Shown one piece after another: positions 1 to 54,298 of a DNA stretch of 64,000 nt. The notes beneath the pieces are model-generated. The model saw nothing but the letters and a program-made list of their open reading frames with translations, did no database searches and had not been told where the DNA came from. Position numbers and translations under genes: made by a program. This DNA comes from Euglena gracilis (Eukaryota). The stretch is from assembly GCA_039621445.1 (NCBI GenBank), contig CP154954.1, positions 38,425,703 through 38,489,702 of the forward strand. Direction: 5' to 3'. Positions within the stretch are counted from its first letter, which is position 1. Each line of letters opens with the position of its first letter.

Positions 1-657
1 TCGGATGTGGAGCTACACTCCGCCAGGGGGCATTAGCCCTAGGGTTCGAGGCACTCGAAGTCCTCCATCCCTTGCCTCAGCTCCTGATGCTTGGCGATGG
101 CGTGCTTGATAGGGGTTGCTTGTCTTTGGTGTCACTGCTCGGCCGAAGCCGCAATGGTTTAATCGTGACACGTCAGGTGGGCAAACGCCGTTGAATCTAT
201 GGTTCGCCGGCCCTTACCCATCAGGCACGCCAGGGTCGAGCCTCTGGTTGCTGATTTCTACCTCGGCGCCATCGGAACTTCCCGCCATACGGCAACCATT
301 CCTTACCCCGCCTGGCAGCGCCGTATGCCATGGCTGGTTCAAATCCCGTGCACCCCCGGATCGGAGTTTAGCTCATCGGGACTCGAAGCCGCGCGTCCAG
401 AAGATGGTACCGATCGAAGCCGGCCCTCGGGATGTAAATTTGTGATGCTGGCGCCATGTCAACGTCCTCACCCGCCACCGACGGGGGCTCTGCGGGCGGT
501 GGTGCAGCAGGAGGGATGGACATTTGTGATGCTGGCGCCATGTCAATATCCTCACACGGAACAAATGGTGGGTCTGTAGGAGGTCCGGGGTTACTTTCAA
601 TGTCCCCGCAGCTGAGTAAAGACCGTCCTCGGCCCGCTCCCCCCGATGCTGCCAGTG

Positions 658-2350
658 TGAAAGATCCGGGCAGCATGCCCACAATGGCAATTGCTGGCAT
701 GCAGATGGCAGCTTCCGCAACACTGGCATTCTTCAACCTTCAGAACACAGAACTTACACACCCAGCAGACTTTGCATAATCTCCCCTTTGAATTTGCCAG
801 GCACTTGGGACACCCAATCCCAGGGGACTTTCCCAATTCTTCTTCCCCTTGGCGCGCAGCATAAGCCAAATGCACAAATACAGCAGAACACTCCTTCAAG
901 TCCAGTCCACAGCGCCACGCAAACAAGTCATGGGATTTGCCCTACCAGCAAAATGAATTAGGAACTTGTCTGCTGGAAATCCTTAATTCACCAATCTGTA
1001 ATGCCACATGTTGTAATGCCACAGGCTGGCATGCCAAAAGTTGCTGTGCAGCAAGGCCACTCACACTCCCCTCTCCGGGCGAGCTTTGCTGGGTCCAACT
1101 CCCAACAAAGCGAGTCAAAAAATTAAAAAGTGGCCTTGGTTGCAGTCACACCCATAAAATAAAAAAATAGAAATTTTAAATACGGTTCGAAGTGTTGCAC
1201 CTGTCTTGGGGCAAAGCTCCCTCAGGTGGACACTCCTACAGCAAACACACAGGCAGGCTGCAGAGGAAGGGCACCCACACCCCCTTGGAACCTCCTCCCC
1301 TGATGACCTCTTCTTTTTCAGGGGAAGACATCCCAAAGATGCCCCTTGGACCATCATGGGTGGAAACCTACCCTTCCACCCAAAATGGCCCAGAGAGTTG
1401 GGTGGGGTCCCAAGCAGGGGGTGAAATGGGCAAACTGGGGCATTTAAATTCTAGTTAATTTGGTCAACCGCGGCTCACCACAACCCACTGTCGAGCCATT
1501 TAATGAGATTTCCACCCAGCAAACACCCACCGCGGCATGGCCACATGCCCTCAGCGGCCATCTCCCACAGACATGTGTAATTTATTGGGTTTACTGCCCC
1601 AGAATTGGCCACAGACACAGCACGCGGCATGCCACAAACATCAGCCAAATACCTCGAATCTGACCTGTCCAGCTTGCCATTACTTCCCCTTCACTTTCTT
1701 CCTCCTCTCTCTTCTTCCCCTTGTTCTGGCTTTTCCTTCTGTCTGCACCCCCTTGTCGCACATCTCGATTGCATGTCTGAATTTGGAATCTCCATGTCCA
1801 AAATTGTCTTCAACACTTCTGTCCGAAACCTTCCCATGACCAAATCTGGCATTGCAATCTTCAGCATGACTGCCCAGATCATGCACTTTCTGAGCATCTT
1901 GGGCAGAGAACTTGTTTGTACAGGCTGGACTGACTTGTTTGTGAAAGATCCGGGCAGCATGCCCACAATGGCAATTGCTGGCATGCAGATGGCAGCTTCC
2001 GCAACACTGGCATTCTTCAACCTTCAGAACACAGAACTTGCACACCCAGCAGACTTTGCATAATCTCCCCTTTGAATTTGCCAGGCACTTGGGACACCCA
2101 ATCCCAGGGGGACTTTCCCAATTCTTCTTCCCCTTGGCGCGCAGCATAAGCCAAATGCACAAATACAGCAGAACACTCCTTCAAGTCCAGTCCACAGCGC
2201 CACGCAAACAAGTCATGGGATTTGCCCTACCAGCAAAATGAATTAGGAACTTCTCTGCTGGAAATCCTTAATTCACCAATCTGTAATGCCACATGTTGTA
2301 ATGCCACAGGCTGGCATGCCAAAAGTTGCTGTGCAGCAAGGCCACTCACA
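658..2350 (-). mobile_element. Mini LTR retroelement 1 (non-autonomous, TRIM-like, putatively self-priming)
   Basis: Near-identical direct repeats at 658-1065 and 1942-2350 read TGTGAGTGG...TTCA on the minus strand. The 4-bp TSD AGTG is at 654-657 and 2351-2354. A PPT (GGAGAGGGGAG, minus) is at 1066-1076. The 11-nt PBS at 1931-1941 is complementary to LTR positions 2205-2215. No gag/pol. Confidence 0.9.
1590..2162 (-). pseudogene. Small Cys-rich/Arg-rich ORF of LTR element 1, with in-frame stops
   Basis: ORF 1680..2162 (CPKC..CKVCWVCKFC..KGVQTEGKARTRGRRERRK) continues past stops as WQAGQVRFE..GQFWG, matching the ORF of LTR element 2. Confidence 0.55.
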
Positions 2351-3478: not shown

Positions 3479-3552
3479 GTTGAAGGTCCGCAGGCGGTTA
3501 TGATAATTAATTTAATTTTTTATTTTAATTGTAATTTAATATTTTTTTTTTA

Positions 3553-4419
<867 letters not shown>

Positions 4420-5082
4420 TGTCGTCTTTTTGATCTTTGTCGGTCATAACTAACGCGGGTGATTGGTGGTGCCTGAAATTACATGGTGCCAGGATGGGCC
4501 AGCATGGTGGGCCAAATCCTGTTTTGTCTTCTTGCGTGAAGATGAAGTGTTTTCAGACCAGGCTTTTGTGACTCATCGTTTCTGGGATACGATGAGAATC
4601 CTGTGCAATGCAAATGCAAGCTGTTTGTTGTGACAGAGCTCTTTGTGTCCCAAGCCTTGTTTTCCCGATGTTGTTGGTCATGGCTGGAAGAGGTCCTGGG
4701 TGGCCAGTGGACCGCAAAGTGCAAAGTACATAGAGCAAGGGTGATGGGCCGGCGATGGGGGGACTGGAGGAGCTGAGGAAGTATTCTCAGACCGGTTTTT
4801 TTGTGCGTAATATGTTGGATTTCTGATCTTTGTCGGTTCTGGCTGCTGTCCCAAATTGTGGTATGTTGCTTACATACTATACTGCTGTTCATCATTGTGA
4901 TGGGACGGTCTCAGCAGTAGCCTTTGATTTTCAGCAGCCTGCGGGAAACATTCTTTGTGTCCTCCTGCAGGTTGTGCTTTAGTCCAGATTATAAGGTTGA
5001 TGCGCCAGAACAGGACTTTGCATATCTTCAGATCCCAGGCATTGAGCCCACGACAGTTGTCGACACACTTCTCGGGCCAACA

Positions 5083-6369: not shown

Positions 6370-8007
6370 AACACAATGCTTAGTCCTACTCTGCTTCGCA
6401 GGATCTTCTTTCCCAGGGCTCCTTCTGCCCCAGGATGGCTCGGATGCAGGTCCCCAAAAAGATTCTGCCTTCATCTCCAATGCCACCACGTGGAGTTACG
6501 GGTTCAATATATATGCGTAATGTACAAAGCCGTGTCACAGGGTAAGAGGGCCGTTGTCGATCTTTTTTGTGTCTCATGTGCCATATTTCCGATCTTTGTG
6601 GTCATAACTAACGCGGGTGATTGGTGGTGCCTCAAATTTCATGGTGCCAGGATGGGCCAGCATGGTGCTCCAAATCCTGTTTTGTCTTCTTGCGTGAAGA
6701 TGAAGTGTTTTCAGACCAGGCTTTTGTGACTCATCGTTTCTGGGATACGATGAGAATCGTGTGCAATGCAAATGCAAGCTGTTTGTTGTGACAGATCTCT
6801 TTGTGTCCCAAGCCTTGTTTTCCGGATGTTGTTGGTCATGGCTGGAAGAGTCCTGGGTGGCCAGTGGACCGCAAAGTGCAAAGTACATAGAGCAAGGGTG
6901 ATGGGCCGGCGATGGGGGGACTGGAGGAGCTGAGGAAGTATTCTCAGACCGGTTTTTTGTGTGTCATATGCTGGATTTCCGATCTTTGTCGGTTCTGGCT
7001 GCTGTCCCAAATTGTGGTATGTTGCTTACATACTATACTGCTGTTCATCATTGTGATGGGACGGTCTCAGCAGTAGCCTTTGATTTTCAGCAGCCTGCGG
7101 GAAACATTCTTTGTGTCCTCCTGCAGGTTGTGCTTTAGTCCAGATTATAAGGTTGATGCGCCAGAACAGGACTTTGCATATCTTCAGATCCCAGGCATTG
7201 AGCCCACAACAGTTGTCGACCCACTTCTCGGGCCAACACAATGCTTAGTCCTTGCCAGCACTCTGCTTCGCAGGATCTTCTTTCCCAGGGCTCCTTCTGC
7301 CCCAGGATGGCTCGGATGCAGGTCCCCAAAAAGATTCTGTCTTCATCTCCAAGGCCACCACGTGGAGTTACGGGTTCAATATATGTGCGTAATGTACAAA
7401 GCCGTGTCACAGGGTAAGGGGGCCGTTGTCGATCTTTTTTGTGTCTCATGTGCCATATTTCCGATCTTTGTGGTCATAACTAACGCGGGTGATTGGTGGT
7501 GCCTCAGATTACATGGTGCTAGGATGGGCTAGCATGGTGGGCCAGATCCTGTTTTGTCTTGTTGCGTGAAGATGAAGTGTTTTCAGACCAGGCTTTTGTG
7601 ACTCATCGTTTCTGGGATACGATGAGAATCGTGTGCAATGCAAATGCAAGCTGTTTGTTGTGACAGAGCTCTTTGTGTCCCAAGCCTTGTTTTCCCGATG
7701 TTGTTGGTCATGGCTGGAAGAGGTCCTGGGTGGCCAGTGGACCGCAAAGTGCAAAGTACATAGAGCAAGGGTGATGGGCCGGCGATGGGGGGACTGGAGG
7801 AGCTGAGGAAGCATTCTCAGACCGGTTTTTTGTGCGTCATATGCTGGATTTCCGATCTTTGTCGGTGCTGGCTGCTGTCCCAAATTGTGGTATGTTGCTT
7901 ACATACTATACTGCTGTTCATCATTGTGATGGGACGGTCTCAGCATTAGCCTTTGATTTTCAGCAGCCTGCGGGAAACATTCTTTGTGTCCTCCTGCAGG
8001 TTGTGCT

Positions 8008-11000
8008 TTAGTCCAGATTATAAGGTTGATGCGCCAGAACAGGACTTTGCATATCTTCAGATCCCAGGCATTGAGCCCACGACAGTTGTCGACCCACTTC
8101 TCGGGCCAACACAATGCTTTGTCCTTGCCAGCACTCTGCTTCGCAGGATCTTCTGTCCCAGGGCTCCTTCTGACCCAGGATGGCTCGGATGCAGGTCCCC
8201 AAAAAGATTCTGCCTTCATCACCAATGCCACCAAAATAATCCAGGACCAGGGGCACAAGTGACCATCCCAGCCTGCTGCATACATCTTTGTACTTTGTCA
8301 CTTTTTCTTTCTCCTGTCTTTCATGCCAGCGTTCCCAACTTTGATCAGTCACTGGGTGGGACGGCGCCAGTGGATGCCGCACTGAGACATCTATTGCAGC
8401 CGGGCCGTTTGCATCGAACCTAGTGATGAAAACATCCCCAGGTCGTCTTCCATCTCCAGTGCCCTCTTCACGCCGAGCAGTATAGCCTGCCGCCTGTGCC
8501 AGCTGCAGGATGAAGTTTTGAATTCCTGCATGTCGCCGTGCCAAATTGTTTTTTTGTGCAACAAACCAGGTGATTCCCTTGATCATCCATCACTGTCTCA
8601 CATCGTGGACACTTTGCCTCCAAACCTTCGTGTGGAGCTACAACAGTCATCCCAGAGTCCATTGTAGAACTGCTCGGAATTCACCTGGGGGCATCAATGT
8701 CTTTTTTGCTGCACAAGGGTTTGCTGCCACCCACGCCAATGCATGAGGTTTCTGTTGGCTCAAAATACGCACCTTGTCAGCCCCGGTGGAATGCGTTACC
8801 AAGTCAGCTCCTCGTTTCTCAGAGAGCTTGTCGTTCCAGAATTTCTGGGAACTTTCCACTTTCCCCAGGTGAGGAATCCGATTGGAGTCCTGTAGTATCA
8901 AAGTTGTCAAATGACTCTCCCCCGTGATTTGTTCGACTGTGCGACCTGTCAGAACGAAGTCTGATGGTAATAGCTCAAGTTCTTTCGGGAACGAGACACT
9001 GTGTTCTGCTCTTTTGCAGAAATCCAAAATAGCAGCCCATCTGGCCACTGGCCTGGTCTTTATTGCATCGTGCAGTCCCAGGCCTCCCAGTCGAATGGGG
9101 ATGGTGGATTGCTCCCATCGAGCTTTTCAGTGAGCTGTCTTCGTGCAATATTGCTCAAACTGTCACGGACCAGGGCAGAGAAGAGCCGTACCATATCTTC
9201 AGAAGAGTTCAAGCGTTGTTCCTCGTAGAAGATCATTTACTTTGCAGCTGGCAATGCACTGGCGCAACAGGTGGAAACGAATGTGGCCGGAAGGAATGAA
9301 CTGCAGCAAGTAGCACAATTTTTCACAAGCTTTCAATCTGTCCTGCCAAATGGATCGCGCAAACGTGTCATCTCCCGGGTACGTCACAGGTATCCCCAGG
9401 GCTTTGATTCCAGATCCCTCCACAAAGGATGTTGCCGGTATTCGTTGCAACACACTGCTTCCCTGTGGCAATCTGCGAAAGGAATCATTGACGGCTGGGC
9501 CCCACAGCCGACATTTGTCCATGTTCAGACTGACCCCAATCGCAGGACCGTCTGCCAAAAGCATGCGCACCACACGATCCAGCTGTTCCATGGATCCAAT
9601 TAGATGGCAGTCGTCCAGGTACCAGCACTGCCATGGCACCATTTCTGCAATTTTGTTGACCAAAGGTTGCACCGCAATGCAGAAAAGAGCCGGGCCACAA
9701 GGGTCCCCTTGTTGAACTCCCGTTTTGGACCTCAGGCTTGTGTTTCCACAATACAAAGGGGAATGTGAACCATGGCATGATTCAGTCCAAGCTGTCATGT
9801 GTGGTACCTGCTGTCGCACTTGATGTAACATGGGTTCCCGTTTCAATTGATTGAAGGCGTTTGCAAAATCCAGCTGCAGAACAGCCCATTCTGTTTTCCC
9901 TGCCTTTTGCAGTCCTTGAACAATTTGTTGCAGTGCAATACTGGTGAGAGCACAAGCGTCAGAATGGCCTACACCGACTTGCCCAGGCAGCCCGTCAATC
10001 AGAGTGTTTCGTACAGTGGCTTCTTTTAACAGAACTTTGGCAAGCAACCGTCTTAAAACTTCTCCTGCCGCAATTGGCCTGGTTCCTTCGTGTTGCAAAT
10101 CGTTGTCCGTATGCAGCATCACATTACCGGCAGCATCTGTTTGTGGTTTCTTCTTTCTCAACGGCGTCAGTCGTGCTCCTGCCAAGATGGACCCCATTTC
10201 CAAAGGCAGTCCTTGTTGGATTGCCGAGAAGACAAAGGCGGAGATTTCTTCCAGTAAATCATCACCACAGCCCGCAGCCTGTGCGGAGATCAATGTTTTG
10301 AGATGGTCAGCCCGCTCGGTCCTCCTGCTGTTTCGTTTTTGAAGGACAGGATGGCCCGTCTCACGGCCTTTTTCATGTGGGCGTCTCCTTCTTGTCCCTC
10401 AGGGACTGGCAGGCGCACTCTTCCGTCGGGGGGCCCTTTCCCGGGCGGATCTTCTGATGGGTGAAGCAGACGTAAACGCTCACGAATTTTTGCATCATTT
10501 GCATCTTGGACTCCGTCTGACAACATTGCCTGACGCGCCTTTGCCGTTGCCCCTCTTTCCACCAGTTTCTGCATTCTGTTGAGAAAGGCTTCTTGTTGGA
10601 TTTCCTCCTCTTTACTTTTTGCTGATCGGGTTTTGACGCTGGATCCGAAATTCGCTTCCGACGGCCTGGACGACTCCCAGCATTCATGGACGTCTTTTTC
10701 CAGGTACGCCTTGGCTCTGGTACACAGCAGCCGCCCAATTCTGGCCCAGTGGGATCGTCCACCCTGACCAGTGCTTGCCAGGACTGCCTTTGGAAAACAC
10801 CACAAAGAGTGAAAGGCCTCCCAAGAGCCTTCTTGTCGTAATCGTCTGAACAAGAGGGTCAGGGTTCGTGCCACTTCCCCCAGCGCTCCTCTGGGGATCA
10901 ATGTCAACGTGGTCCTCGGTCATGTGCAATGTCATCCCATGCAGGGCGCAAACCTTTGGGACACGGTCCTTGTAAGGTGTGACACCCCCCCAAGTCCACT

Positions 11001-11959
11001 TCCATGCTGCCTTCCATAGGCCCCGGATTCTGCTCCACATCACCATGGGTCAGAACACCTTCTTCCCGCCCAGTTTTCCCATGGCCACGTGCTTTTCTTT
11101 TGTGAGCTTCAGATTCCTTCCTGGGGCCCGGGTTCAGGGGGACATCACCGCTGAAAGCCACACCTTCCCTGCCTGTGGCTAGGTGTTCTTCTGGCACCTG
11201 CAGCAATGTGTTTCCCGGGCCGCAAAGAATGTCTTGTAATTCTGCACAATGCTGTACGTGGGACAAGCACCACCCAGAATTTATTCTTTGCCTTGACCAC
11301 CCACACAGGGTGCACTGTACCCAGAAGGCTTCTCTTTCCTGAAAGAGAGGTGACGTCCCGTCTGGTCCTTTTGCAGGCTCCTCATCCGCCCGTATTTTGA
11401 ACATGTCTTGTACTTGTTGTTCCACCAAGACATGCAGGAGATCACATTCACCACACGGGCCCGCCGTTGGTCCAGGCAGGGGGTTGATGTCACCAGAAAA
11501 AAGCAGCCCCCAAGAGCCCTTGGCCGGGATGTCACGATTTCGTCCCATCTGTTGCCATTGGTCCACGACTTTGGTCAATTTACGTGCCGCCCGCTCGTGG
11601 ACCAGCGTGCCCCCCTGCTGCCGTCGCTCCTGCCGCTGATGCAGGAATTTTTTCTTCCAGCTGCTGAAAGAGGTTTCCTGCAGTGGAGCATTTTCCGGGG
11701 AATTGGGCGGACCAGACCTCGGCTCCCGGCATTTTTCGTCAAACATGACGCCCGTTGGGTTTAACCACTGGCCTTCCACTTTCCAAATCTCTGTGTCAAA
11801 GACAGAGAAAATTTTGTATGGGCCTCCTGGTGCTGGCCGTCTTTTTTCTTGCACCGCCGGTTTTTTCTCCCTTGTGGGGGTACCTTTTTCCATCACTGGG
11901 GTTTGGGATTCCCTTTGTCCTTGCTCAGGCCCGAATTCCAGGGCAAGGGGGGTAATCAA
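8008..11959 (-). pseudogene. CRE polyprotein: 2A region, reverse transcriptase, CCHC knuckle and restriction-like endonuclease (several frameshifts)
   Basis: RT motifs ARLTPLRK, RPIAAGEVLRRL, QVGVG, LDFANAFN, GVQQGDPCGP, YLDD, LNMDKC and ALGIP. Then CPRC..DDQGNHLVCC, and RLE motifs RRH..E..RPGD..IDVSV..K..KY..PLVLDYFGG. Confidence 0.93.
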
Positions 11960-12139
11960 CTCATGGCCGAGTTTTTCTCCAACTGCAGTTGGGGGGGGGA
12001 TATCTTCCCCTCTCCTGGACTTTTGCTGCAGAAAATCTTGGGGGGGTCTTCAGCACGCACTGAGCCACACAATGGGAATGTTTCTTCTCCCTGTGTGTGG
12101 TCCGCTTCTTCATTTTTTGCTACTGTTCTTTCCTTTCTT

Positions 12140-13413
12140 TCAGCAAGTCCAAATCACTCCTTCATGGTCTGAAGGAAAGATAGGAGGCTGTTGTTGAGCT
12201 GTCTGATGGGAGGCTCCAGTCCTGTCTCCTCCCTCTCCCGAATGGCTTTGGCTCCTCCTCCTTCTTGGTAAGGAGGGGGGGGGTGCTGACCCCAGGCCCT
12301 CCAGAGGCTGGCTGGGCAGAGGACACTGCTGCTGAGGTGTTGACAGTTCCTGGGGGGATGGCATTGTGCCCCACCGAATGGCCCATCAACAGCTGGTACT
12401 TCCACCAGGGTAGGTCTGCAGACATTGCCCCAGAGGGGTCCACATAGTAAACAGGCTGGGGAGTCATATACATCTGGTTCTGGCCACACATTGTCTGGCC
12501 CTGGCCAAGCAAAACTGCAGCTTGTCCTGAAAGGCCTGCTGTGGCTGCAGCTGCTGGTGTATACATCACAGACTGGGGATGGGGTACTTGATGACCTGTG
12601 GCAGATGCTGCAGCAGAGGAGTCCAAACTGGAAGAAGGCTGAGGCAGTTGATAAAATGTTGTCCATGGAATAACCCCAGATGGCAGATGTACAGTGCCTG
12701 ACCTTCTCTGTGCAGGGTACTCTCTCTGCTGCCCATACTCCTGCTGCTGCAGGGCTCTTCTCTGTGCTGGGTAGTCTCTCTCCAGCTGCTCAAACTCGTG
12801 CTGTTGCTGCAGGGGTCTTCTCTGTGCTGGGTAGTCTCCCAACTGCTACTCATACTCCTGCTGCTGCTGCAGGGGTCTTCTCTGTGCAGAAGAATCTCTG
12901 ACCTGTCTCTCTTGGTCAGGCCACCTCCAGTCTGGAGGGAACTCAGCTGCACTCCTCCTGTCTGGAGGGTTTCCACCACGTTAAACATTGAATCTCTTTC
13001 TGTCAGGGCTTCTGCTGCGACTTCTGGTCTGTCTTCCCCAGTACTCAGCTCTTCTTTTCCTGTCAGCTTCCTTCTGTTCCCAACGCAGCTGGCGAGGTCG
13101 TTCTGGGCATATAAAATATATTTGCATATAAAATCCTTTCGGAGCTCCCGGATGTGCACTTTCCGATGGAGAGGACTTGGAGAATCTCCAACTCCACCGG
13201 GGAATTTTTTCATGCTGACAATGAGAAAAAATGATTATTCATGCTCATAAAAGCAACCATTTTGTTTACAAAAAAATTCGAAAAACGCCAAAAAATTCAC
13301 ATCACATACGAAGAACCCCACCTGCGTTTCAGATAGTTCTCATACTCATCTGCTTCAAGGAAACCTTCTCCTTCATCCTCCTCTCTGCTGTCTCGGCTCC
13401 AACGCCTTCTCAT
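12140..13413 (-). pseudogene. CRE N-terminal (ORF1-like) region with an in-frame intron at 13215-13321 and Q-rich repeats
   Basis: Exon 13413-13322 (MRRRWSRDSREEDEGEGFLEADEYENYLKR) splices in frame to ORF 12566..13213. About four YPAQRR-LQQQ repeats lie at ~12705-12895. Frameshifted. Confidence 0.6.
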
Positions 13414-13491
13414 GAAATGCCACAGTTTGTCGAACTCGGAGCTTCAAACTATACCCCTGGTGGGGCTTTCACTTGTCCGACATGTGATATG

Positions 13492-13518
13492 CGAAAAAAA
13501 AATAGACACTCAGAAAGT
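13492..13518 (-). other. Euglenid spliced-leader exon sequence (relict, not an SL RNA gene)
   Basis: The minus strand reads ACTTTCTGAGTGTCTATTTTTTTTTCG, matching the Euglena SL as I recall it with one extra T. It is followed by CATATCACATG, not a GT donor. Confidence 0.92.
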
Positions 13519-13881
13519 GCCACCAATTTAAATTTTTTTTTTGGGAATCCACCAGCATCCACAGGCGTCGGTGGGAGCGGGGAGAGTTGAGGGTGAAGTA
13601 GAAGGGCGGTGAGGGGCACAATACGGAGGGGGGATAGCGAGTGAGAGAGGAAAGTGTACAGCGGCAGGAAAGGTTCAATGGAACGGCCATGGGGACTGTT
13701 GAGTGTTGAGGTTGTGGCAGCGACAAGTTCAGGTTTTGGGGAGTTGGCGCAGGGAAGGCTCTGTTTTCAGTGCGGTAAGGGTTTGGACGTCTTTGTAGAC
13801 TTGGTCCATTCGTTGCAAGGTGTGATTTGCTTGTTTTTTGGTTTAATTAGTCTTGTGGTTGGTTATGCGTACACGGTAACA

Positions 13882-13932
13882 AACGGTGGTGGGGCGAACC
13901 GAATCCACCGACCAGTGGCACAGCCTACTGGA
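13882..13932. repeat. 51-bp double-hairpin motif, copy 2
   Basis: Identical to 3428-3478 and in the same orientation; the flanks are unrelated. Confidence 0.9.
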
Positions 13933-14244
13933 TTTGTTGTGTTCAGGGGAGTAAGGCTATGTACAGTGGATAGAGTCTGTGCGAGGAGAAGGAGGTGTGG
14001 GGGCAGGTAGGAAGTGCGAGCTTAGCAGCGAGAAACGAACATGCTGAAAAGCTGGGTGGCGGGGTGTTGGGAGTGAGACCGATGCCCCGGTGTTTCGATG
14101 GTGAGGTGGTGGGCATGCTCCGTCTATGCGTACGGTTATGCGTACGGTTGGTGTTAAAATTTAATCTAGAATTAAGAATCAAAACAAAAATATCGCGAGT
14201 TTCTTTCCGCACAGAAGCCTGCCAACCAAAAATTCTTCCCAGCC

Positions 14245-16278
14245 ATGTCAGAGGATGACTTTGCTGAGCTGAATTTAGTAGATCAAGCAAATACTGATCC
14301 TGGGATCCCTCGTCATATCCCAATTACTAAAGGCATCTTGAGGCTTGGACGGGTGTATGTTCCTTGCCTGTGCCAGTTGACTGTCTTGCTGAAACCCTTA
14401 ATACATGGGATTTTTTTCCACCATGGCCCTCCATCGATGGTCATTTATTTTGATTTTTGGCCGCATGGCCATTGTTTTTTGGGGGGGGCAGGTGGCCATA
14501 TACGTTATATAATATTCAGCAGGAGGGGGTCAATGGGGGGTGCTCATCTGTTACAGTTGGCATCTTCCTTTCCCTTTGTCCTCCTGCCTTTTTTTGCACT
14601 TGGGCCCTTCAAAATAACCCTGGAAAATGGGCCCAGGTGCTGGTGGCTTTCTGCCCATTTGTGTGAACACCCTTTGTGGGGGCCAAGGTGCGACAGGGCC
14701 ATTTTCACCAAACCCCATCCCTTCAAAATAACCCCAAATCACATGGAAATAAAACCAAACGGCACCAACCTGCTGCCTTCCATTCCATTCCATTCCATTC
14801 CCGTCCTTCCCTTCCAAATTACTACCCCCCCCCCTCTTATTTGACAGTATTTGTCTGTTAGTCGATTCACGGCAAAACAGGTCGATCCACACCTATTTTT
14901 GGCCTACTTTGGGTCACTGATGGACAGGGAAAGCACAAAACAGGATCAGAAGCTACGTCTGGTGTCGGCACAGGTCTGGAGAGTTTGTGGAGCCACACGC
15001 ATAGCCACCCACAGGTGCGGTTGCGGAACGCCCTATCCCTAACCCCATTCTTGACCCTATCCCTAACCCTAACCATGTCCCTACAGTCCCTAGCCGTAAA
15101 TTTCCCCCCCCCCCAGGGAGGGTTTTTTGGGCTCTTGACCAGGGGGGGGGGATTTTCGGCCGTTTCGGGCACTTTGTCCCGTCCCTTCTATTCTTTGAAG
15201 CCATGAAGCCGACCGGGATTCGGAATTCATTTGCCGTATGTTGTGGGGTTGTTATGGTATATTCCCGAACGCCTCTGTTCAGGGCGGTGGGTCTTATTGA
15301 TAGATACATGCCGGGGATGGTTCAATGGACAAAAAACCCCAAAGGATGCCAACTCCTCGACCCAGGGGCCATGCAAGTGGTGAAGCTGTGCTGCCCTTGC
15401 ATGTACAAAAAAAAAGTCCCAACCCACCTGCCTTAGCTGTTCCTCTGGGGCTGAAGGGGGGGGGGAAAGTTTTCGCCCGTTTCGGAGCCTTTTGCAAAAC
15501 CAGGAAAATTCCCAAATTTCAGGGGGGGGGAAATTTTCGGGGGGGGGACAATTTACGGCTAGGGACTGTAACCCTAACCATAAACCATAACCCTAATCCC
15601 TAACCCCAACCCTAACCCTACCCCTAACCCTAACCCTATTCCTAACCGTATCCTTAATCCTGGCCCTAACCCTAACCATATCCAAAACCCTATCCCTAAC
15701 TGTATCCCTGACCCTATCACCCCAAACCCAAACCCTATCCCTAACCTAACCCTAACCATTTACCTAACCCGAACCCCAAACAAAACCCAAACCCTAACCC
15801 AATCCCTAACCCTATCCCCAAGCCCTGTAGCCGGTTTCCTAACCATAATTGGTGTGAATCGACTAACAGACTTGATGCCGTGGATCGACTAACAGACAAG
15901 TAGGGGGTGTTCCCCCCGCGTCCCCCCGCGTCCCCCCGCGTCCCGGATTTTGGCCGGGCACGTTTTTTTGGTTGACCAAAGGAAAATTACACACAAATTT
16001 AGGTGACGCCAAAGAAAACGTGTGGGGGTGGTTGGGCCACGTCCCCCCGTGTCCCCCCCGCGCCCCCCCCCCCCGTGTCCCCCCCCCGCGTCCCGAACCA
16101 CCCCCATACCTATTTTGACCCCCCCCATTAATTGAGCATTTGGGTCTGGGAAGAATTTTTTTAGGCGCCAAAGGCGCTGAAAATTTTTTTCGTCCTCTAT
16201 CAAAGCCAAATTTCGACCCCCCCCTTAATTGACCCCCCCCCTGAACTGAGCATTTGGGGTCCTTTGGGCCACACACAT

Positions 16279-16327
<49 letters not shown>

Positions 16328-19300
16328 TCAGGGGGGAAATGCGTTTCGCATTTTTTTTTGCATTTTTGCGCATTTTTTCAAATTTTTTCGCATTTTTTTT
16401 TCGCATTTTTTTCCTTTTTTTCCGCACGTTTTTTTGCTTTTTGGCACAGTTTTTTGTGATTTTCCAAAATTTTCGCATTTTTTTGACCATTTTTGACCAT
16501 TTTTTGCAAAAATTTGAAAATTTTGACTTTTTTGAAACGTACATTTTCCTCATTATTACATAATTTCTTCAAATTTGGTGCCATTTTTGCACGTTTTTGG
16601 GTAATTTTTGCATTTTCGTGATTTTTGCGCATTTTTTCTCAGATTTTGCACATTTTTGCGCATTTTTCTCCAAAAATGCGCATTTTTTGTGCATTCTTTT
16701 GCGCATTTTTGCGCATTTTTTTCCGAGGCCGGGCGAGCGCATTTGCTCCCCTGCACACATTCCGAAGCACACATGCACACACCCACACCACATCATTTTT
16801 AATGAAAGATTTTTGCACCATATTTTCCAATGATCTCCCCAAATTCTTCTTTTCAATTTGCGAAACTGGTGGAAGATGGACAGCGCCAGAAAAAGATACA
16901 AAAACACCCCCTTTTCCATACTTTTGAGCATATTGCCCTTTTTGATCATTTTTCGATGTTTTGGTGTTTTATGAAAGATTTTCTATACAAAAATCGACCG
17001 ACACTAACAGATTCAGCAGGGGCGCCGGGCGCGAGCGAGCGAAGCGAGCCGCCCGGCGCCCCTGCTGAATCTGTTAGTGTCGGTCGATTTTTCTAAAACC
17101 TATTTTGTCTGGGCCCGACGCCTGTCTTGATATTCATTCGACCGAACCGCCTGGACGGAAATATGGTCAAAAAAGTGGTTTTTGGCCCATTAACGGGCGC
17201 CTGAATGGAAATCGACCGACACTAACGGGCGCCTGAATGGAAATCGACCGACACTAACGGGCGCCTGAATGGAAATCGACCAACACTAACGGACGCCTGA
17301 ATGGAAATCGACTGACATAAACGGTTTCCGATGTCTTGGAAATCGACCGACCTTTTGTGTCCTTTTTTTGAATGCCTTTTGTTCCGTTTCGGGACATTTT
17401 AGGTGTCAGCCTGAAATCCGTTAATGTCGACCCAACCTTTTGTTCCCTTTTTCGGAATGCAGCTTTTCTTCCATTTTGAAACAAACAATCTCTACATCAA
17501 GAACTGTGTCTTAAACGCAGACTCTGCATTTTTTCGGAATGCATTTTTTCTTCCATTTTGCCAAGAACAATCTCTACTACAAAAAAGGGGTGGCGGACGC
17601 CGGTTCTGTCCAAAACCCGGCGTTCCAAACGCCGGTTCCGTCCGAAGGACGGAACCGGCGTTTGGAACGCCGGGTTTTGGACAGAACCGGCGTCCGCCAC
17701 CCCTTGTTTAAAGCGGCGTTTTAGAGACGCCGGGTTCAGGACAGAACCGGCGTCCCCACCCTTCGGTCAAAGGACACTCCCAGGACCAATCTCCGACCAC
17801 TTATCTGCAATGTCACGCCACCTTGCATTTCACCAAATTCCGGCGATCGCGAGGGTATTTCTGGCTGTGTCGATCGCCTGGGTACAAACTCACCCCTCGA
17901 TCGAAAGCTCTTTTCATCAGACGACTGGCGATCACCACCAAATTCAGCGACGCCGCCTGGAGCTCTTACTTTCTGTCACTGGGAAATCCTAATTTCACAA
18001 CTCTGGTGCCCCCCAGAACCCCTCAGGTGGTCGCTTCGAAGAGAAGAAACGTTTCTGTAAGGTTTATTCAGCATCTTAAACCAAAAATCACTGAAAATTA
18101 CCACAAATTTCGACTAAGATTCTGGCCGATCCGACGATCGCGAGCGTATCTCTGGCTGCGTGCAACGTTAGGGTACCAAGTTACCCCTCGATCGAAAGCT
18201 CTTTTCAACAGACGACCAGCGGTGCTCATCAGACCTTTCCACGCCGCACGGTACTCTTTATCAAAATCTGGGCCAATTTCACGAAATTTGGACATCCACC
18301 CCACTGGTCCCCAAATGGCAAAAATCATTGTCCTACATGGTTAAAACAGTCATACCAGGAGCTTTGGGCCACTTTTGGGCACTTTTGGTGACATTTTTAG
18401 GAATGAAAATCGGACGCCGGGTTTTGGACAAAACCGGCGTTCCTAACGCCGGGTTTTACACAAAAATCGTCCATGTCACCCGGACACACCGTGTGTCCGG
18501 GTTATGGGCGCCGAAGGCGCCCATAACCCGGGTACACGGTGTGTCCGGGTTACAATGGACGATTTTTGTCTATATCCGTTGACTAAGAGGCCCAAGACAC
18601 ACACTGTGTCTCGTGGAACTTAGCCACGCAATGTCTACCCCGTATTTTTTTGCGATTTTTTGTCAAATTTTCAGTTCACGATGACACACACTGTGTCTCG
18701 TGGACTGCCAGTCCACGAGACACAGTGTGTGTCCTCGTGAACTGAAAAAAATCAAGAATTCCCACTGGTCCGACCAACAAGGGACAAGTTTTACCACATT
18801 CCGCTACCTGTCCTTGCAGTTTTTTCTTTCGGAAAATGAAGAAGACCGCAAACAGTGTGGACCGCATGCTCCCCCGACCCCCGAAACCAGATGAATTTGT
18901 TGCTACACTGGAAAAGTATTTGGTCGATTTGCAGAAGGGCCCTGCTGTTGACCCAATACACGGTACGTTGTTGGCCAACGTGTTGGAAGAGAAGCCAAAA
19001 GGGACCGCAATTGCTGAGCGTGTAGCTGTTACACGCCTGTTGGAGTTCCAGCAGGTGTGTAAACATCTGAACGCTCAGTATGAGGACCTGGATGGCTTTT
19101 TTTCCGCATGGGCTGGTTGGGTCATTGACCCCAGATATTTGTTTGATGAGGCTACCCTCATCAATCAAGCTGAGCAACAACGCCGGGGCACAGTGTGGCA
19201 CCACATTCAGTTTCGAGACATACCTGTACCATCTCAGCTGTTACAGCTCACGGTTGTCCGGTGACCATCTTTCCACTGCCCTGCTGCATTGCATTAGATG

Positions 19301-22300
19301 TAGAACACCTCGCATTTCTGGCAAACACCTTTTATTTTTCAGTCCACGAGACACAGTGTGTGTCCCAGTCCACGGGGACACACACTGTGTCTCGTGGACT
19401 CAGTCCACGAGACACAGTGTGTGTCTTGGGCCTCAGTCCACGGATATTAGGACAGAACCGGCGTCCGAAAACCCGTGGGGGGGGACGCCGGTTCTGTCCT
19501 GAACCCGGCGTCTCAAACGCCGGTTTTATCTCAAGAACTGTGCCTAAAACGCAGACTCTGCATTTTTTTAGAAACACAGATTTTGACCAAAGCCATGTTG
19601 CCAGGAACACAGCCTTGCAATAGAATAGAATTGCAATACAGGCGTCGAGCCCAGAAAATAGGTTTAACGTGGCCAAATTACTCCTCACCCGAAAGCTTTT
19701 CTTTCAGATGACCAGTGATAACAACTGGTTCAGGGCAAATTTGCCGAATGCTTTTTCTGAAGTCCCAGAAAATGATAATCTTCAGCTCCGTCCTTCCGTC
19801 TGTTCCATCAAAGTTCAGCCAGCTGTGATCACCTGACCACAAAATTTGGTTTTTTTCTGGTCCAAAACGCCTCCACAACCCCATAGGACCAAAAATGTCT
19901 TCAAAAAAGGGAGATCCAAAATGTCCAAAAAGTCACCAAAAATTCCCAATCTGACCAGCAACAGATTTCAATGGAATGGAAATCGACCGACATAAACGGG
20001 CGCCTGAATGGAAATCGACTGACATAAACGGGCGCCTGAATGGAAATCGACTGACATAAACGGGCGCCTGAATGGAAATCGACTGACACAAACAATTTCA
20101 GGCTGAAATCCGTTAATGTCAGTAGAATTTCAAGACAGGCGTCGGGCCCAGAAAATAGGTTTTAAGATTTTTCAAAAATGAGCATTTTTGGATTAATTTT
20201 CTACACACAAATTGTGGCTGAGCCCAGATTTCAGCCTGAAAACGTGTTCAGCCAGGGGGCCCCCGAAGGGGGCCCCCTGACGTTTTCAGGCTGAAATCTG
20301 GGCTCAGCCACAATTTGTTTGAAAACGTGCCTAACCACAGATGCCTTAATTGAAAACGTGTCATTGCCACAGATGCCCTCATTGAAAACGTGTCACCCCC
20401 CCCCTTTTTTTTTTTTTTTTCCCACTATGGCGAAACGCACGGCTAACTTTGTGAATGGTCTTTTGCCACCTCCCCCTAGGACGGAACTGTTCCTGGCTGC
20501 TCTCGCGGTATACCAGCAAGATGCCAAGAAGCCGAAGGTTGACCCCCTTCTGGCACCTTGCTGGCACAGGGCAACGTAAAGAAAAGGTCCGGCTCCGTGG
20601 GAGCAGAGGCTGCTGTTGCCAACTGTTTGGAGTTCGCCAAACTGTGTCAACATCGGAAGCATCTTATCCTGAGCTGCATGCTTTCTTTGTTGCCTGGATG
20701 GGATAGGAGCTGGAACCCAGCCTGTTGTTCGATGAGGCGAGCGTCATTTAACAATGTGTGGCTCAACGTGAGCAGCAGTCGGGAACTTTGTTCGTTTCAG
20801 GGAATTGTTCGGCAACCTCTTTTCTTCTTTGCCATTCCCAAAAATCCAAATTGGAGCTGAACAAAGTTGTGTGTGACGCCTGTGGTTTGGCATATCATTT
20901 TCATTGCCAAGATTTGCGGTGGCCACCAAAGTTTGGCTCTTTTTTTGTGTAAAGCGTGTCGTGTTCCGTGAGGTCCGCCACTCCGTGTCGTTGTGCTCCA
21001 AGGCAACCTAGCTTTCTGTTGTGTTTAGAGTGCCCTCGATCCGCCTCACTCGTTGAGGACCACCCGGCCTCGCAACCGCCCGCCGATTTTTCATGACAGC
21101 GTTTTTTGCTTTTTACTCAGGGTTGCCACAGATGCCTCATTGAAAACGTGCCTGACCACAGATGCCTTAATTGAAAACGTGTCATTGCCACAGATGCCCT
21201 CATTGAAAACGTGCCTAACCACAGATGCCTTAATTGAAAATGTGTCATTGCCACAGATGCCCTCATTGAAAACGTGTTCATGACCACGAATTTCAGGGCA
21301 GGCATTTGGCGGGCTGAACATGTTTTTAAGGCACGTTTTTAAAGAAATCAGGGATTTTTGAACAATTTTGCCCGATTTTCCAGCCGTTTGCCCGTCCACA
21401 AAACCAGCCCCCCCCCCAAATTTCGAGGTAGGGGGTGGGGGGGGGGGTCCCTCATCCATCCTCCCCGTCGGGCCAGGACTTTGGGAGATAAATAATACCC
21501 AGGGGTGTTCACCTCCTCCTCTGTCCCTCTACCCCCGGGGCACGAGGTATCAAAAAAAAAAAGTGGCAAGTTTTGGTTCATATCAGGTGGCCGCACCGTC
21601 CCCGGGCGGAATATTGGCCATGCTGGTTCTGGACGGGCCGACCTCTGGAGGTCGACAGAAATGGCCACTGACTGTGCTGCATTATCCCTCGGGCCGACCT
21701 AGTCAGCCCGACCTGTTGCTGCGGCCGCGCGAGGGGGGGGGGGCTCGGACCTGGCCAATCCACGCACCAATCCCCCATTGTATCTGCCGGCTGTAACTTC
21801 ACCTTCCAAAGCTGGTGTCTCCTCCGAGTCCCCCCCCCCACGTCCCAGACACACCCTATGGGTGGGGCGGGAGGGTCCAACCACACCCCACCATGCCGCA
21901 AAGGGGCAAAGCAACTCCCTGGAGATTTCACATCCAAGGACCTGATTGCCTCTTCATTCAACTGTTCCATTTCTTTCCTTTTCCCCCTCACAGAGAACAC
22001 CCAGATTATGCTGATGTTGCCATCAAGTCTGCCAAATTTGAGGCCATGGTGTCTCGAAAACATGCACCCAAGATGTCACAAAGCATCAATTTCTTCACCC
22101 CAATACCTCCTGGAACCCACAACCAGACAATGGCAAGGGAAAAGTCAAGGCTCAGCAAAAAAAATAATCTTCGCTCGGCCAGTGTCCTGGGACCACAAGG
22201 GGGGGGGGGGAATGACGGGGGGTTGCTTGGTTTTTTTTGCCATTTGAGAGAAAGTGAACTGGAGTGGGAGGAACATGGGGGGAGTGGGCAATAATTGAGG

Positions 22301-25300
22301 ACAAAGTGTCAAAATTCACTAGTAAGAAACACCATGTTTGCTTGGGGTTTTCACCAATGCTTTGATCCATTTGGTGTGGCAGAATCCAACGACGTTCCAA
22401 CCATCATCCATCCACCGCCATCACTGCCCTTTGCCATCTTGCAAGCAACAATCAAGAAAGTCACCAGAGGGTGGGCCATCATCGACAACAAGAGCACAAA
22501 TGGGGTCATGGTAAATCGCCAACCTATCCAGGCAGATGTGCCGATGCCCATCAAGTGTGTTCTGTCTTGTCAGGTTACCATGCTCCTCCTCATGAGACCC
22601 CCCCTGGCCAGCCAAAAGCAGGCCCTTTGACTGAAGCCAACCCCTCCCCCATTGATACCCTGGAATTCACCTGTTTGTGGAGCACCCACCCACCCACCCC
22701 TTGGGGTGCTCCCGGGGGGGGGAGGGGGGAGGCCCGGGGTTCATTCGGGAGCGTGATTTGGCCCTCCTTATTTTGCACACACAAGGGGATTTTGTTATTT
22801 TTGGCGGGGGTCCGGGGCATACAATTTCTTACCGACCCTGGGGGGGTCACTCCACTTTTTTAAAAACCAGTCAGTCACCCATTTTCAAAAAACCAGCCAG
22901 TCACTGCCCCCGGGGGGGGGGTCGGCCACTCAGAAAAACGGCCACTTTCCAGTTACTTTAGGCCATTTCAGGCCAAAAAAAAAATTTCCGGCGCCTTCGA
23001 CACCGGGGTCACTCAAGCCACTTTTGCCCGCTCCTGGCCGCCCCCCCCCCCGGGGGGGAGGGGGTCCGGGCCCAAAACCAGTCAGTCACTCTGAAGAAAC
23101 TAGTCACCCACCCCCCGGGGGGGGTCGGTCAGTGCTTTAGCAATTGCCTGGTCCGGGGGGGGGGGGGGGGGGGTGGCAGCCCCCCCCCCCCCCCCCGGAG
23201 GAGGCCGTAGGTCGACTAAGTTCGCATATTGGGGTTCATACGGGGGCGCGATTTGGCCCTCCTTATTTTTCACACACAAGGGGATTTTGTTATTTTGGGC
23301 GGGGGGGGGGGGTCCGGTGGGTGGCGCCCCCCCCCCCCCCCCCGGAGGCCGACTAAGTTCACATATCGGGGTTCATTTTTTGCAAATGGACCCCCGAACG
23401 GGGGGTTTCTGAAGGCATTTGGGTGGGTTTCGAGTCATTTTCCTCCATATTTGAATGAAAATTTTTGGAGGGGGGGGGCTTAAAATTTTTAGAGGGGGTA
23501 GACTGAAAATTGGTGGTCGGAGCGACTAGTCGCTCCGACCACCAATGGTCGCTAGGCCATCACCAACAGTCGCTAGCGACCACCAAAAAATCCATCACCA
23601 ATTTCCCGCAATGAGCCCATCACGGGCAAATACAGGGAGATGTTTAACCCCCCAAAATAACACCTTGATAATTGTGAACGGCCGGCAGCAAAAATTACTC
23701 GCCACTGGCGTCATGGTCCGAAGGCCAGGCCCCAGTCCTATTGAATGTCCAGGCCCTGGTCCCCCCTGGAGCCAAAAAAGCTTCAGTGGCAGAGAGCCAT
23801 GGGCAGACAGGGGGAAGCGCACCTGGGGGGGTTGCAGTCCTATGGCATACCCCTCTGGCGTCTTTGGCACCGCGGGGGTCAGTGGAATTTTGAAAGAAAA
23901 ATGGGGTTTGGTGGGCGGCCATTACACAAAAATCGTCCATGTCACCCGGACACACCGTGTGTCCGGGTTATGGGCGCCAAAGGCGCCCATAACCCGGGTA
24001 CACGGTGTGTCCGGGTTACAATGGACGATTTTTGTCTATATCCGTTGACTAAGAGGCCCAAGACACACACTGTGTCTCGTGGAACTTAGCCACGCAATGT
24101 CTACCCCGTATTTTTTTGCGATTTTTTGTCAAATTTTCAGTTCACGAGGACACACACTGCGCAGTGCCCTAATTCCCCCCCCAAATTAATGTGCAGTGCC
24201 CTGTTTGTGCGCACCCGCCAAAGGTCCGAAACTAGCTCCCTAAAAAGTGCGCACCCCCCCAAAGGAGAAACTGTCACATCTCAGGTCGGAAAGCACACAC
24301 AATTCTTCCATCCTCCAATCCCAAATTTGACACATTCCACCAGATGTGTCTCGTGGACTGGCAGTCCTCGAGACACAGTGTGTGTCCTCGTGAACTGAAA
24401 AAATCAAGAATTCCCACTGGTCCGACCAACAAGTGCCCCCCAATAACTTGGCCTTTCGGCAACTTTTGGCTTAGAGCATAAAGGTTTCTCGTGGACAAGT
24501 TTTACCACATTCCACTACCTGTCCTTGCAGTTTTTTCTTTCGGAAAATGAAGAAGACCGCAAACAGTGTGGACCGCATGCTCCCCCGACCCCCGAAACCA
24601 GATGAATATGTTGCTACACTGGAAAAGTATTTGGTCGATTTGCAGAAGGGCCCTGCTGTTGACCCAATACACGGTACGTTGTTGGCCAACGTGTTGGAAG
24701 AGAAGCCAAAAGGGACCGCAAAGGCTGAGCGTGTAGCTGTTACACGCCTGTTGGAGTTCCAGCAGGTGTGTAAACATCTGAACGCTCAGTATGAGGACCT
24801 GGATGGCTTTTTTCCCGCATGGGCTGGTTGGGTCATTGACCCCAGATATTTGTTTGATGAGGCTACCCTCATCAATCAAGCTGAGCAACAACGCCGGGCA
24901 CAGTGTGGCACCACATTCAACTTCGAGACATACCTGCCTTCTACCGTTTACAGCTCACGGTTGTCCGGTGACCATCTTTCCACTGCCCTGCTGCATTGCA
25001 TTAGATGTAGAACACCTCGCATTTCTGGCAAACACCTTTTATTTTTCAGTCCACGAGACACAGTGTGTGTCCCAGTCCACGGGGACACACACTGTGTCTC
25101 GTGGACTGCCAGTCCACGAGACACAGTGTGCGTCTTGGGCCTCAGTCCACGGATATTATCCCCAAAGGCTTTGACATCCTGCCGAAATACAACCAGATCT
25201 TACTTTGGTTTTGTGCCCATCATTTTCCCCTCCTACAGAGATGGCGATGTCATCACATTTGGAACCGACCAGTCAGACCTTGTGTACACTTTTGAGGTGT

Positions 25301-33680: not shown

Positions 33681-33867
33681 GTGTGTCCATGTGCCATGGC
33701 CCCCCCAATACCCCCTAGGACCCCCCCCCCCGGGGCTCGCTTGCCGTGGAGTTCCAGGAGCCTTCGGCGATTGTGCGGGGTCACCGTGTTCACCACACTA
33801 CTCAAGAGCCTTAAATATTGACCACTGCGAGGTGCCAGTCAACAAGGGTTCAGCTGTGCTGCCGTTT

Positions 33868-34537
<670 letters not shown>

Positions 34538-49903: not shown

Positions 49904-50221
49904 GCAAACAAAACCCAGACGCCGCGGGAGATGAAATACTCAGTCAGCCTACAGTCCCGAACCATGTATCCCCCCCTAAATGTTTTTCGGCATTTTGGGA
50001 GGGAGCTTGACCTTTTCACCACACTATTCCCATTCTTGGACAAACAGAAGGGGTATATGTTCATGACTAAATTGCACAAAGCCTGTCTTCAAATGAGAAA
50101 TACACTGCGACTTCATCAGATAAAAGCTGCCTCTCCTTTATTAACGGCTGAATTTGTGGATTTTGGGGCTTTTTCTTTTGGTTGGGAAGAGGGGGAACTT
50201 TTGACCGGTTTGCCAAAGTTT

Positions 50222-50258
<37 letters not shown>

Positions 50259-54256: not shown

Positions 54257-54298
<42 letters not shown>

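Follow-up and report, generated by a model that had tools for sequence, protein, structure and literature searches.

Tandem 2A-like motifs upstream of the reverse transcriptase in a repeated R2-like retrotransposon of Euglena gracilis: a candidate StopGo polyprotein

The minus strand of a 64,000-nucleotide stretch of the Euglena gracilis genome (assembly GCA_039621445.1, contig CP154954.1, positions 38,425,703 to 38,489,702 of the forward strand; the whole of this stretch is called the window here) carries three short motifs of the 2A type upstream of a reverse transcriptase (RT) frame. In StopGo translation, the chain is released after D(V/I)ExNPG with Pro-tRNA in the A site, and the ribosome resumes from the Pro (PMC12846837; Baral 2026 preprint). 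The question raised by this locus is whether a retrotransposon with a restriction-like endonuclease (RLE) has been built as a polyprotein that is divided in this way, as a first-pass annotation had proposed. We consider it likely that the window holds a decayed copy of a highly repeated, R2-like RLE element whose single open reading frame (ORF) is organized as a StopGo polyprotein. Translation would begin upstream of the motifs; at the third of them (...GDVEQNPG/P) the ribosome would free an accessory N-terminal product, made up of the N-terminal region and a small zinc module, and on resuming from the Pro it would produce the RT-CCHC-RLE protein, a single frame thereby yielding an ORF1-like product and the enzyme. 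The first two motifs would sit where relatives have canonical sites parting further cargo, the second of them back to back with the third, at the place of a cargo domain in the relatives.

The motifs and the type of the element

All three motifs were found on the minus strand in the single frame of ORF A, which is open for 381 codons from stop to stop (12049..10907, with its stop codon at 10906-10904) and would form the N-terminal accessory part of the polyprotein. Motif 1, GDINPLPGP (nine-residue core 11494..11468, in the context GSWGLLFSGDINPLPGP), is off-consensus at the Glu and Asn positions; motif 2, GDVPLNPGP (core 11149..11123, in GREGVAFSGDVPLNPGP), has Pro where Glu is expected; and motif 3, GDVEQNPGP (core 11044..11018, in GREEGVLTHGDVEQNPGP, then M), is a canonical D(V/I)ExNPGP sequence whose next residue is Met. 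The coordinates assigned earlier to the motifs fit these nine-residue cores, but not the 13 residues that had been quoted. In all three motifs Gly stands directly before the eight-residue D...PGP portion, and the upstream stretches are LLFSG in motif 1, VAFSG in motif 2 and VLTHG in motif 3, which we compared by eye with the LLLLSG-like class. Motifs 1 and 2 have the same unusual Pro-Leu pair, identical also at the DNA and codon level. Motif 1 aligns with the canonical GD(V/I)ExNPGP of relatives, among which the first motif of P0002 reads GDINPNPGP. Met codons occur in ORF A at 11893, 11746, 11548, 11404, 11017 and 11005.

The motifs bracket two segments, a CxxC..H..HC module and a short basic peptide, much as the first-pass annotation had described them. 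The former is a zinc-type module of 106 residues between motifs 1 and 2 (11150..11467, minus strand) with the pattern GPCG...F...GPDG...CxxC...H...C, in which CTLC lies at 11314..11303 and HVQHC at 11260..11246. The latter is the Lys/Arg-rich linker of 26 residues between motifs 2 and 3 (11045..11122, minus strand). This linker forms the upstream portion of the third 2A peptide, and the piece released would have 35 residues if sites 2 and 3 both worked.

To evaluate whether such motifs could arise by chance, we generated 300 random 64-kb sequences with the dinucleotide make-up of the window. The pattern D[VI]E.NPGP occurs twice in the window and in none of the 300 random sequences, so that the motifs are beyond chance expectation. 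The looser pattern GD[VI]...PGP occurs four times in the window, against a random mean of 0.017 and a maximum of 1, and the bare NPGP is not unusual (seven in the window, random mean 3.08, with 12 of the 300 sequences reaching seven).

Downstream of the motifs, the element layout bears out their position upstream of the RT. The RT frame comprises 399 codons (9202..10398, minus strand), with a Pfam RVT_1 match over 10086..9502 (E = 9.8e-16), and its best relatives in the PDB, when this ORF was searched alone, were R2 proteins (E = 2.4e-7). The C-terminal part (8008..9201, minus strand) contains the thumb/linker, a CCHC knuckle and the restriction-like endonuclease. It includes two further pieces of the RT frame, 9126..8650 and 8589..8011, the latter of which keeps RPGD...IDVSV...K; in-frame stops occur within 9199-9126 and 8647-8589, and a local frame slip, located between roughly 8650 and 8549, breaks up the CCHC of the window copy. 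When a profile built from seven related proteins of the clade was searched against the PDB, it matched R2 in two separate domains (RT, and CCHC plus RLE) with an overall E of 2.3e-25, and L1 ORF2p with 2.4e-8. The CCHC and RLE portion of the profile aligned to R2 at residues 920-1132 (E = 5.7e-9), and C..C...H...C and RPgD...vDvTV...K fall within this alignment. R2 was reached in this region by the clade profile only, the RLE piece alone and the relative P0007 alone giving no sequence match in the PDB.

Pfam detected no apurinic/apyrimidinic endonuclease (APE; Exo_endo_phos) domain in the five ORF pieces of the element, where RVT_1 was the only match, or in the relatives P0007 and P0008, where RVT_1, SLBP_RNA_bind and Dam were found. 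Since RT, CCHC and RLE match R2 and APE is absent from these pieces, the element is, on its domain content, an RLE-type, R2-like non-LTR (long terminal repeat) retrotransposon, and the earlier assignment to the RLE type stands. The clade is designated here as R2-like in the sense that the nearest solved proteins are R2, the only comparison RT of this kind in the PDB library, which covered none of CRE, NeSL, R4 or HERO; the CRE label of the first-pass annotation is only putative. An N-terminal zinc-finger/Myb DNA-binding part was not detected in the window element, and Pfam found nothing in four plus-strand ORFs over the element or in two minus-strand ORFs upstream of it.

One reading frame in the family

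In the window copy, ORF A, ORF B and the RT frame lie in three different frames, and the motifs are out of the RT frame. ORF B (209 codons, 10293..10919, minus strand) was recognized by tblastn as the conserved region of the RT protein that follows the last 2A, matching residues 764-964 of P0007, 871-1071 of P0008 and 41-241 of P0006 at 39-44% identity. To determine how the family reads across these breaks, we used the contigs of four public runs that aligned with positions 8000-12300 at 80% likeness (797, 371, 229 and 14 contigs). The family is highly repeated, the summed word depth in run X1 reaching thousands, and the window copy is about 97% like its main contigs.

At the first break, from ORF A to ORF B (10904..10919, minus strand), most family contigs carry one additional base at 10915 (by depth, 3822.7/4040.4 in X1, 183/195.1 in X11 and 56.7/56.7 in X13). 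At the second, from ORF B to the RT frame (10299..10314, minus strand), family contigs carry seven additional bases at 10308 (156.6/185.5 in X11, 85.3/107 in X13, and only 256.5/1061.8 in X1). The ORFs are offset from one another by 1130 and 521 bases, values that become multiples of three once the additional one and seven bases are counted. These bases coincide precisely with the two breaks and place motifs and RT in one frame in the family; the refuting condition named in the first-pass annotation, motifs out of frame with the RT in the consensus, applies only to the window copy, which is broken. Single contigs agree with this arrangement: record 22 of X13 (10360-11423) spans the first break with one gap alone, and record 21 of the same run (9626-10389) spans the second with seven gap letters alone. 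The stops farther downstream are explained as local frame slips by two pairs of length differences, one at 9211 and 9124, the other at 8650 and 8549. In addition, tblastn with intact relatives was colinear across both breaks; residues 182-329 of P0007 correspond to 11545-11018, residues 764-964 to 10916-10308 and residues 965-1734 to 10314-8020, with residues 964 and 965 contiguous over the second break.

These results bear directly on a different explanation, namely that the two breaks are programmed −1 frameshifts and that the motifs belong to a separate ORF1. The breaks do shift in one and the same direction, with overlaps of 15 and 108 bases between the frames, as would suit such a mechanism; however, the additional bases present at both places in most family contigs give one frame, the intact relatives are single-ORF proteins whose homology crosses the breaks residue by residue, and the window copy has four more indels as well as in-frame stops downstream. 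We rejected programmed frameshifting, which we regard as extremely unlikely, because family contigs and intact relatives read as one frame.

Regarding the motifs themselves, the sole family substitution listed in motif 3 (at 11024, in all contigs) keeps Pro and is synonymous, and the family-wide spelling of motifs 1 and 2 is probably the same as that of the window. In the metatranscriptome X18, the one clear RNA run, 16 of 30 bins were covered but no bin over the motifs, which is evidence neither way. Contigs about 97% identical were present in runs labelled with three different organisms (A, B and C), and a leaf-litter metatranscriptome contained pieces 90-99% alike to the element; the element family is common to several labelled sources.

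Relatives, cargo and the expected activity of the motifs

To establish whether the layout is conserved, we searched ORF A with phmmer against 1.84 billion representatives and, separately, used the RT frame as query, which returned P0007 (1736 aa, 46% identity) and P0008 (1849 aa, 45%). All five relatives of ORF A (P0001 to P0005) hold the module GP.G...F...GP.G...C..C...H...C, and four of them have GD...PG cores flanking it, which are canonical in P0002, P0003 and P0004 and are two degenerate sites in P0001; P0005 shows no GD core in its available part, its C-terminus being cut off. The two sites of P0003 are in frame with its own RT, and P0007 and P0008 each have three exact GD(V/I)ExNPGP sites in frame with RT-CCHC-RLE, in the order SLBP-like domain, 2A, zinc module, 2A, a segment that contains NPPF, 2A and RT protein. 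Two or three exact D[VI]ExNPGP sites thus flank the module in five of the seven module-bearing relatives (P0001-5, P0007 and P0008), and a 2A is in frame with the RT in all three that reach it (P0003, P0007 and P0008). The succession of 2A, zinc module and 2A thus recurs in relatives. Of the five proteins nearest to the window RT (P0006-P0010), the two that extend far enough upstream both carry 2As, two are cut off, and P0006 (42% RT identity) begins at a conserved Met-x-V-D just past the place of the last 2A. The 2A sites of the relatives fit the class with a Leu-rich upstream stretch, and we take them to resemble the 2A of Thosea asigna virus.

Farther away, no 2A site was present in P0011-P0020, and neither the strict nor the loose motif was found on either strand of 80 distant metagenome loci (23-33% identical, 414,580 bases in total), 61 of which had at least 500 bases upstream of the match. 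Within a broader RLE-type group, the 2A is a mark of one close clade. Longer relatives of ORF A and ORF B were not found by word-index searches, and a search of IMG/VR with P0007 gave no match.

A Met follows the last 2A immediately in the window (11003-11017), and Met-x-V-D occurs within 11 residues of it in P0007 and P0008; this Met may be an alternative start of the RT protein. It could be proposed on this basis that the motifs are relics with no role and that the RT protein is made from the Met after motif 3 through leaky scanning, reinitiation or a shorter transcript. The sequence NPGP-M of the window, the Met-x-V-D after the last 2A in P0007 and P0008, the beginning of P0006 at this position and the distant relatives devoid of 2A (0 of 80 loci, and none in P0011-P0020) are in agreement with this proposal. 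In contrast, motif 3 retains its canonical core in the family, where the one change listed is synonymous; five of seven relatives also retain such a core despite low overall identity, and in all three relatives that reach the RT it is in the RT frame. We regard the loss of any role as quite unlikely.

The 2A core is near-invariant, while the zinc module is only 29-38% identical among relatives, its invariant columns across eight module sequences being G, P, G, F, P, C, C, H and C. AlphaFold modelled the core of the module with pLDDT of 80-90 (60.9 on average over the whole model), and searches for structural neighbours gave no fold match (best Foldseek E in the PDB, 0.87); in the wide VIA comparison the best Z was 3.5, with scattered double-stranded RNA-binding domain and zinc-finger rows below noise, and the ESM Atlas scores, at best 0.82 (module) and 0.80 (first 185 residues), were at chance level. 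ORF A belongs to no Pfam, NCBIfam or PHROG family. From its position, the zinc module is taken as the ORF1-like partner. The sole match of the 185 residues that precede motif 1 is a 33-residue stretch common to P0001.

In P0007 and P0008, the region before the first 2A includes an SLBP-like RNA-binding domain (Pfam E = 2e-13 in P0008), and the segment with NPPF lies between the second and third 2A (residues 370-418 in P0007 and 463-509 in P0008). This segment weakly matched models of N6-adenine DNA methyltransferases (Pfam Dam, 6.4e-6; TIGR01712, 4.3e-5; PHROG 111, 1.3e-7), over about 47 residues and below the curated cut-offs, and we tentatively regard it as Dam-like. The window element does not have it; just 26 residues occupy its place, which leaves sites 2 and 3 back to back. 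We infer that the window family lost this cargo, and that constraint on the redundant site was then relaxed.

What activity may be expected from the three motifs can be judged from published work. The class A core is defined as D(V/I)ExNPGP, or in extended form (D/G/C/N)(V/I)ExNPGP (PMC12846837). The DVEQNPGP of motif 3 matches it exactly, and DINPLPGP (motif 1) and DVPLNPGP (motif 2) are outside both the definition and its listed permitted variants; motif 2 is a candidate one-deviation 'class X' peptide, and motif 1 deviates at the Glu position (Asn) and at the Asn position (Leu). In mutational scans of P2A and F2A, E14H alone reached the 0.6 threshold among the substitutions described at D12, E14 and N16, and N16A abolished activity. 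Across 2,465 viral octapeptides, the Glu and Asn positions are reported to hold E and N nearly without exception, H being the sole rare variant. On the strength of these scans and of this survey, motifs 1 and 2 are rated as probably weak or dead, motif 1 more surely so. Motif 3, with its exact core, the Gly that precedes it and its conservation, is taken as the working boundary and probably functions as a skipping site. The motifs, the frames, the homology, the RLE type, the common frame of the family and the confinement of 2A to a close clade are shown by the present analysis; that the ribosome skips here, how efficiently, and what the products do is inferred. Hence, the virus-like polyprotein proposed at first for an RLE-type element is upheld in its layout, its RLE type and its family frame, but not in the first two motifs, which are off-consensus.

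A related possibility, raised in the first-pass annotation, is that all three sites skip at graded efficiency, giving four products whose ratios would set the accessory:RT stoichiometry. G-D-(V/I) and PGP are kept in all three motifs, the Leu-rich LLFSG precedes motif 1, and the Pro-Leu shared by motifs 1 and 2, together with the GDINPNPGP of P0002, suggests that the deviations may be kept variants rather than decay; moreover, one preprint reports activities of 74% and 39% for natural one-deviation 'class X' peptides in which Ala or Ser, respectively, replaces the Glu. Nevertheless, only E14H is tolerated in the P2A/F2A scans at the three positions, with the loss of activity caused by N16A, the two positions are nearly exclusively E and N in the viral octapeptides, motif 1 is off at both of them, and motif 2 would be redundant, 35 residues ahead of a canonical site. 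These data make graded skipping unlikely.

Several observations weigh against a StopGo polyprotein with motif 3 as its working boundary. Motifs 1 and 2 are outside the published functional variants. The repeat to which the element belongs extends past 12300, upstream of the stretch open in ORF A. The common frame of motifs and RT across the family is deduced from tables of indels, and the absence of listed family substitutions in motifs 1 and 2 is to be read with a listing of 40 of the 487 substitutions. The sample of ORF A relatives is small, with only five matches (E = 1.6e-19 to 3.3e-4). Finally, P0006 has no 2A in its available part, and given this protein, the RT protein could perhaps be made without StopGo.

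A more general version of the StopGo polyprotein is a tentative possibility. The RLE-type LINE (long interspersed nuclear element) clade would have a modular polyprotein with 2As at cassette boundaries, the window family would represent a case of cargo loss, and motifs 1 and 2 would maybe be tuned to low efficiency. The Leu-rich 2As may in this way have let SLBP-like, zinc-module and Dam-like cargo be gained, swapped or lost.

Surroundings of the element and its place among known systems

The 3′ end of the element is reiterated in tandem at 6370..8233 (minus strand), with a period of about 873 bases that comprises the last ~226 bases of the ORF and ~650 bases downstream. The copies are head to tail and 96.7% identical, and a further partial copy is present at 4432-5082 (97.5% identical). 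The array may consist of tandem 5′-truncated copies, or may mean that the element prefers its own 3′ region as a target site. A separate fragment at 563..700 (minus strand) bears a second canonical 2A (core 604..581, LLSCGDIESNPGP) that resembles the third site of P0007 and is preceded by GRGRS. The fragment resembles the N-terminus of P0003, with 50% identity to its first 36 residues, has no RT downstream within the window, and begins where a duplicated segment (656-826 = 1940-2110) stops. It is probably a 5′ piece of a related element.

Elsewhere in the window, a direct repeat of ~1 kb, whose copies (18456-19400 and 23922-25107) are 99-100% identical and separated by 5.5-5.7 kb, has the appearance of LTRs that belong to another element, or of a recent duplication; Pfam identified no family in the ORF between the repeats (21672-22244) or in that over the second copy (24475-25353). 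Simple-sequence arrays, including (CT)n and 8-10-base units in 55 overlapping copies, are present at 3550-4450, 33787-34400, 50193-50440 and 54087-54368, and inverted repeats of about 160 bases occur around 3700-4440. The observed/expected CpG ratio is 0.58 in the window and the element alike. No Pfam family was above the cut-off in 23 other ORFs of the window, the spliced-leader motif of dinoflagellates had no match at up to three mismatches, the tRNA search gave none, and Rfam, applied to the whole window at the gathering score and to 11400-14500 at E up to 1, returned no family and no ribozyme of the hepatitis delta virus type.

According to PMC3708506 and PMC3894237, 2A sequences in non-LTR elements are established for APE-type clades, as the first-pass annotation had rightly stated for elements such as L1Tc, and the RLE clades are portrayed as plain single-ORF elements; the APE-type elements with an N-terminal 2A include the trypanosome L1Tc/Ingi and the animal Rex1, L2, Crack and CR1 (Odon 2013, PMC3708506; Heras 2006, as cited). 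As described there, the APE-type LINEs resemble the present family in having a class A site in a long ORF upstream of the enzymatic domains, sometimes a small zinc-type domain (PHD) between 2A and enzyme, and degenerate variants among copies. In contrast, they carry APE and usually one 2A, whereas here APE is absent, CCHC and RLE are C-terminal, and up to three sites bound modules. With R2 (9nl3; 9dou, R2Tg; 9nl2; 8gh6, R2Bm) the element has in common the RT, the CCHC, the PD...D...K endonuclease and the single ORF, and it differs in being distant (profile E of 2.3e-25), in its very high copy number and in its 2A-delimited accessory N-terminus.

Several StopGo sites per ORF, some of them tens of residues apart, are also described in multi-2A polyproteins of RNA viruses (PMC11512398), and natural back-to-back tandem 2As exist in such viruses (PMC11512398; Baral 2026 preprint, H15A/B). 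Unlike these, the present case concerns a cellular retrotransposon, and in its tandem pair a canonical site is joined to an off-consensus one. A closer parallel is provided by the 2A-delimited cargo reported on ORF2p-like proteins, deubiquitinase/PPR in Haematococcus (Dualen/RandI included) and OTU in Symbiodinium (bioRxiv 10.64898/2026.06.17.732966). There, as here, the 2A is the boundary between a captured domain and the RT protein, but the cargo here is a zinc module, SLBP-like and Dam-like in relatives, and the endonuclease is RLE only. The DAM-carrying retrotransposons reported in one preprint are of the DIRS and LTR types, not LINE-like RLE elements (bioRxiv 10.64898/2026.05.21.726589); the NPPF segment of P0007 and P0008 shares with them a weak N6-adenine methyltransferase match, and the differences are that these two proteins are LINE-like and of the RLE type, that their matches are sub-cut-off, and that the window element has no such segment. 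We rejected SymbioLINE-Dnmt as a counterpart, as it is APE-type and has a separate ORF1.

In recent surveys, the number of unique 2A peptides predicted is about 2,200, from 35,974 instances and with three or fewer per eukaryotic gene (PMC12338488), and 2A is found in 580 reverse-transcribing contigs, of which about 79% are non-LTR-like (Baral 2026 preprint). The survey texts consulted name no RLE-only element, the literature located on 2A in RLE-type elements offered nothing beyond PMC3708506 and PMC3894237, and the supplements of the 2025-2026 surveys may list some. Relative to these descriptions, in which 2A is attributed mainly to APE-type elements, StopGo in an RLE-type LINE clade with several module-bounding sites would be new.

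Should the modular interpretation be true, the RLE lineages, regarded as 'ancient', would have their first described 2A, and LINEs their first adenine-methyltransferase cargo. RLE LINEs have been treated as simple ancestral one-protein elements, and ORF1 together with 2A has been tied to the younger APE lineages (PMC3708506, PMC3894237). An RLE ORF split by StopGo would show a second route to an ORF1-like partner, and a family of this kind would show how elements gain and shed cargo. The three variants found side by side would constitute a natural test of the tolerance of the StopGo core in its native context, and the methyltransferase-like cargo of the relatives would tie the clade to the work on retrotransposons with DNA-modifying enzymes.

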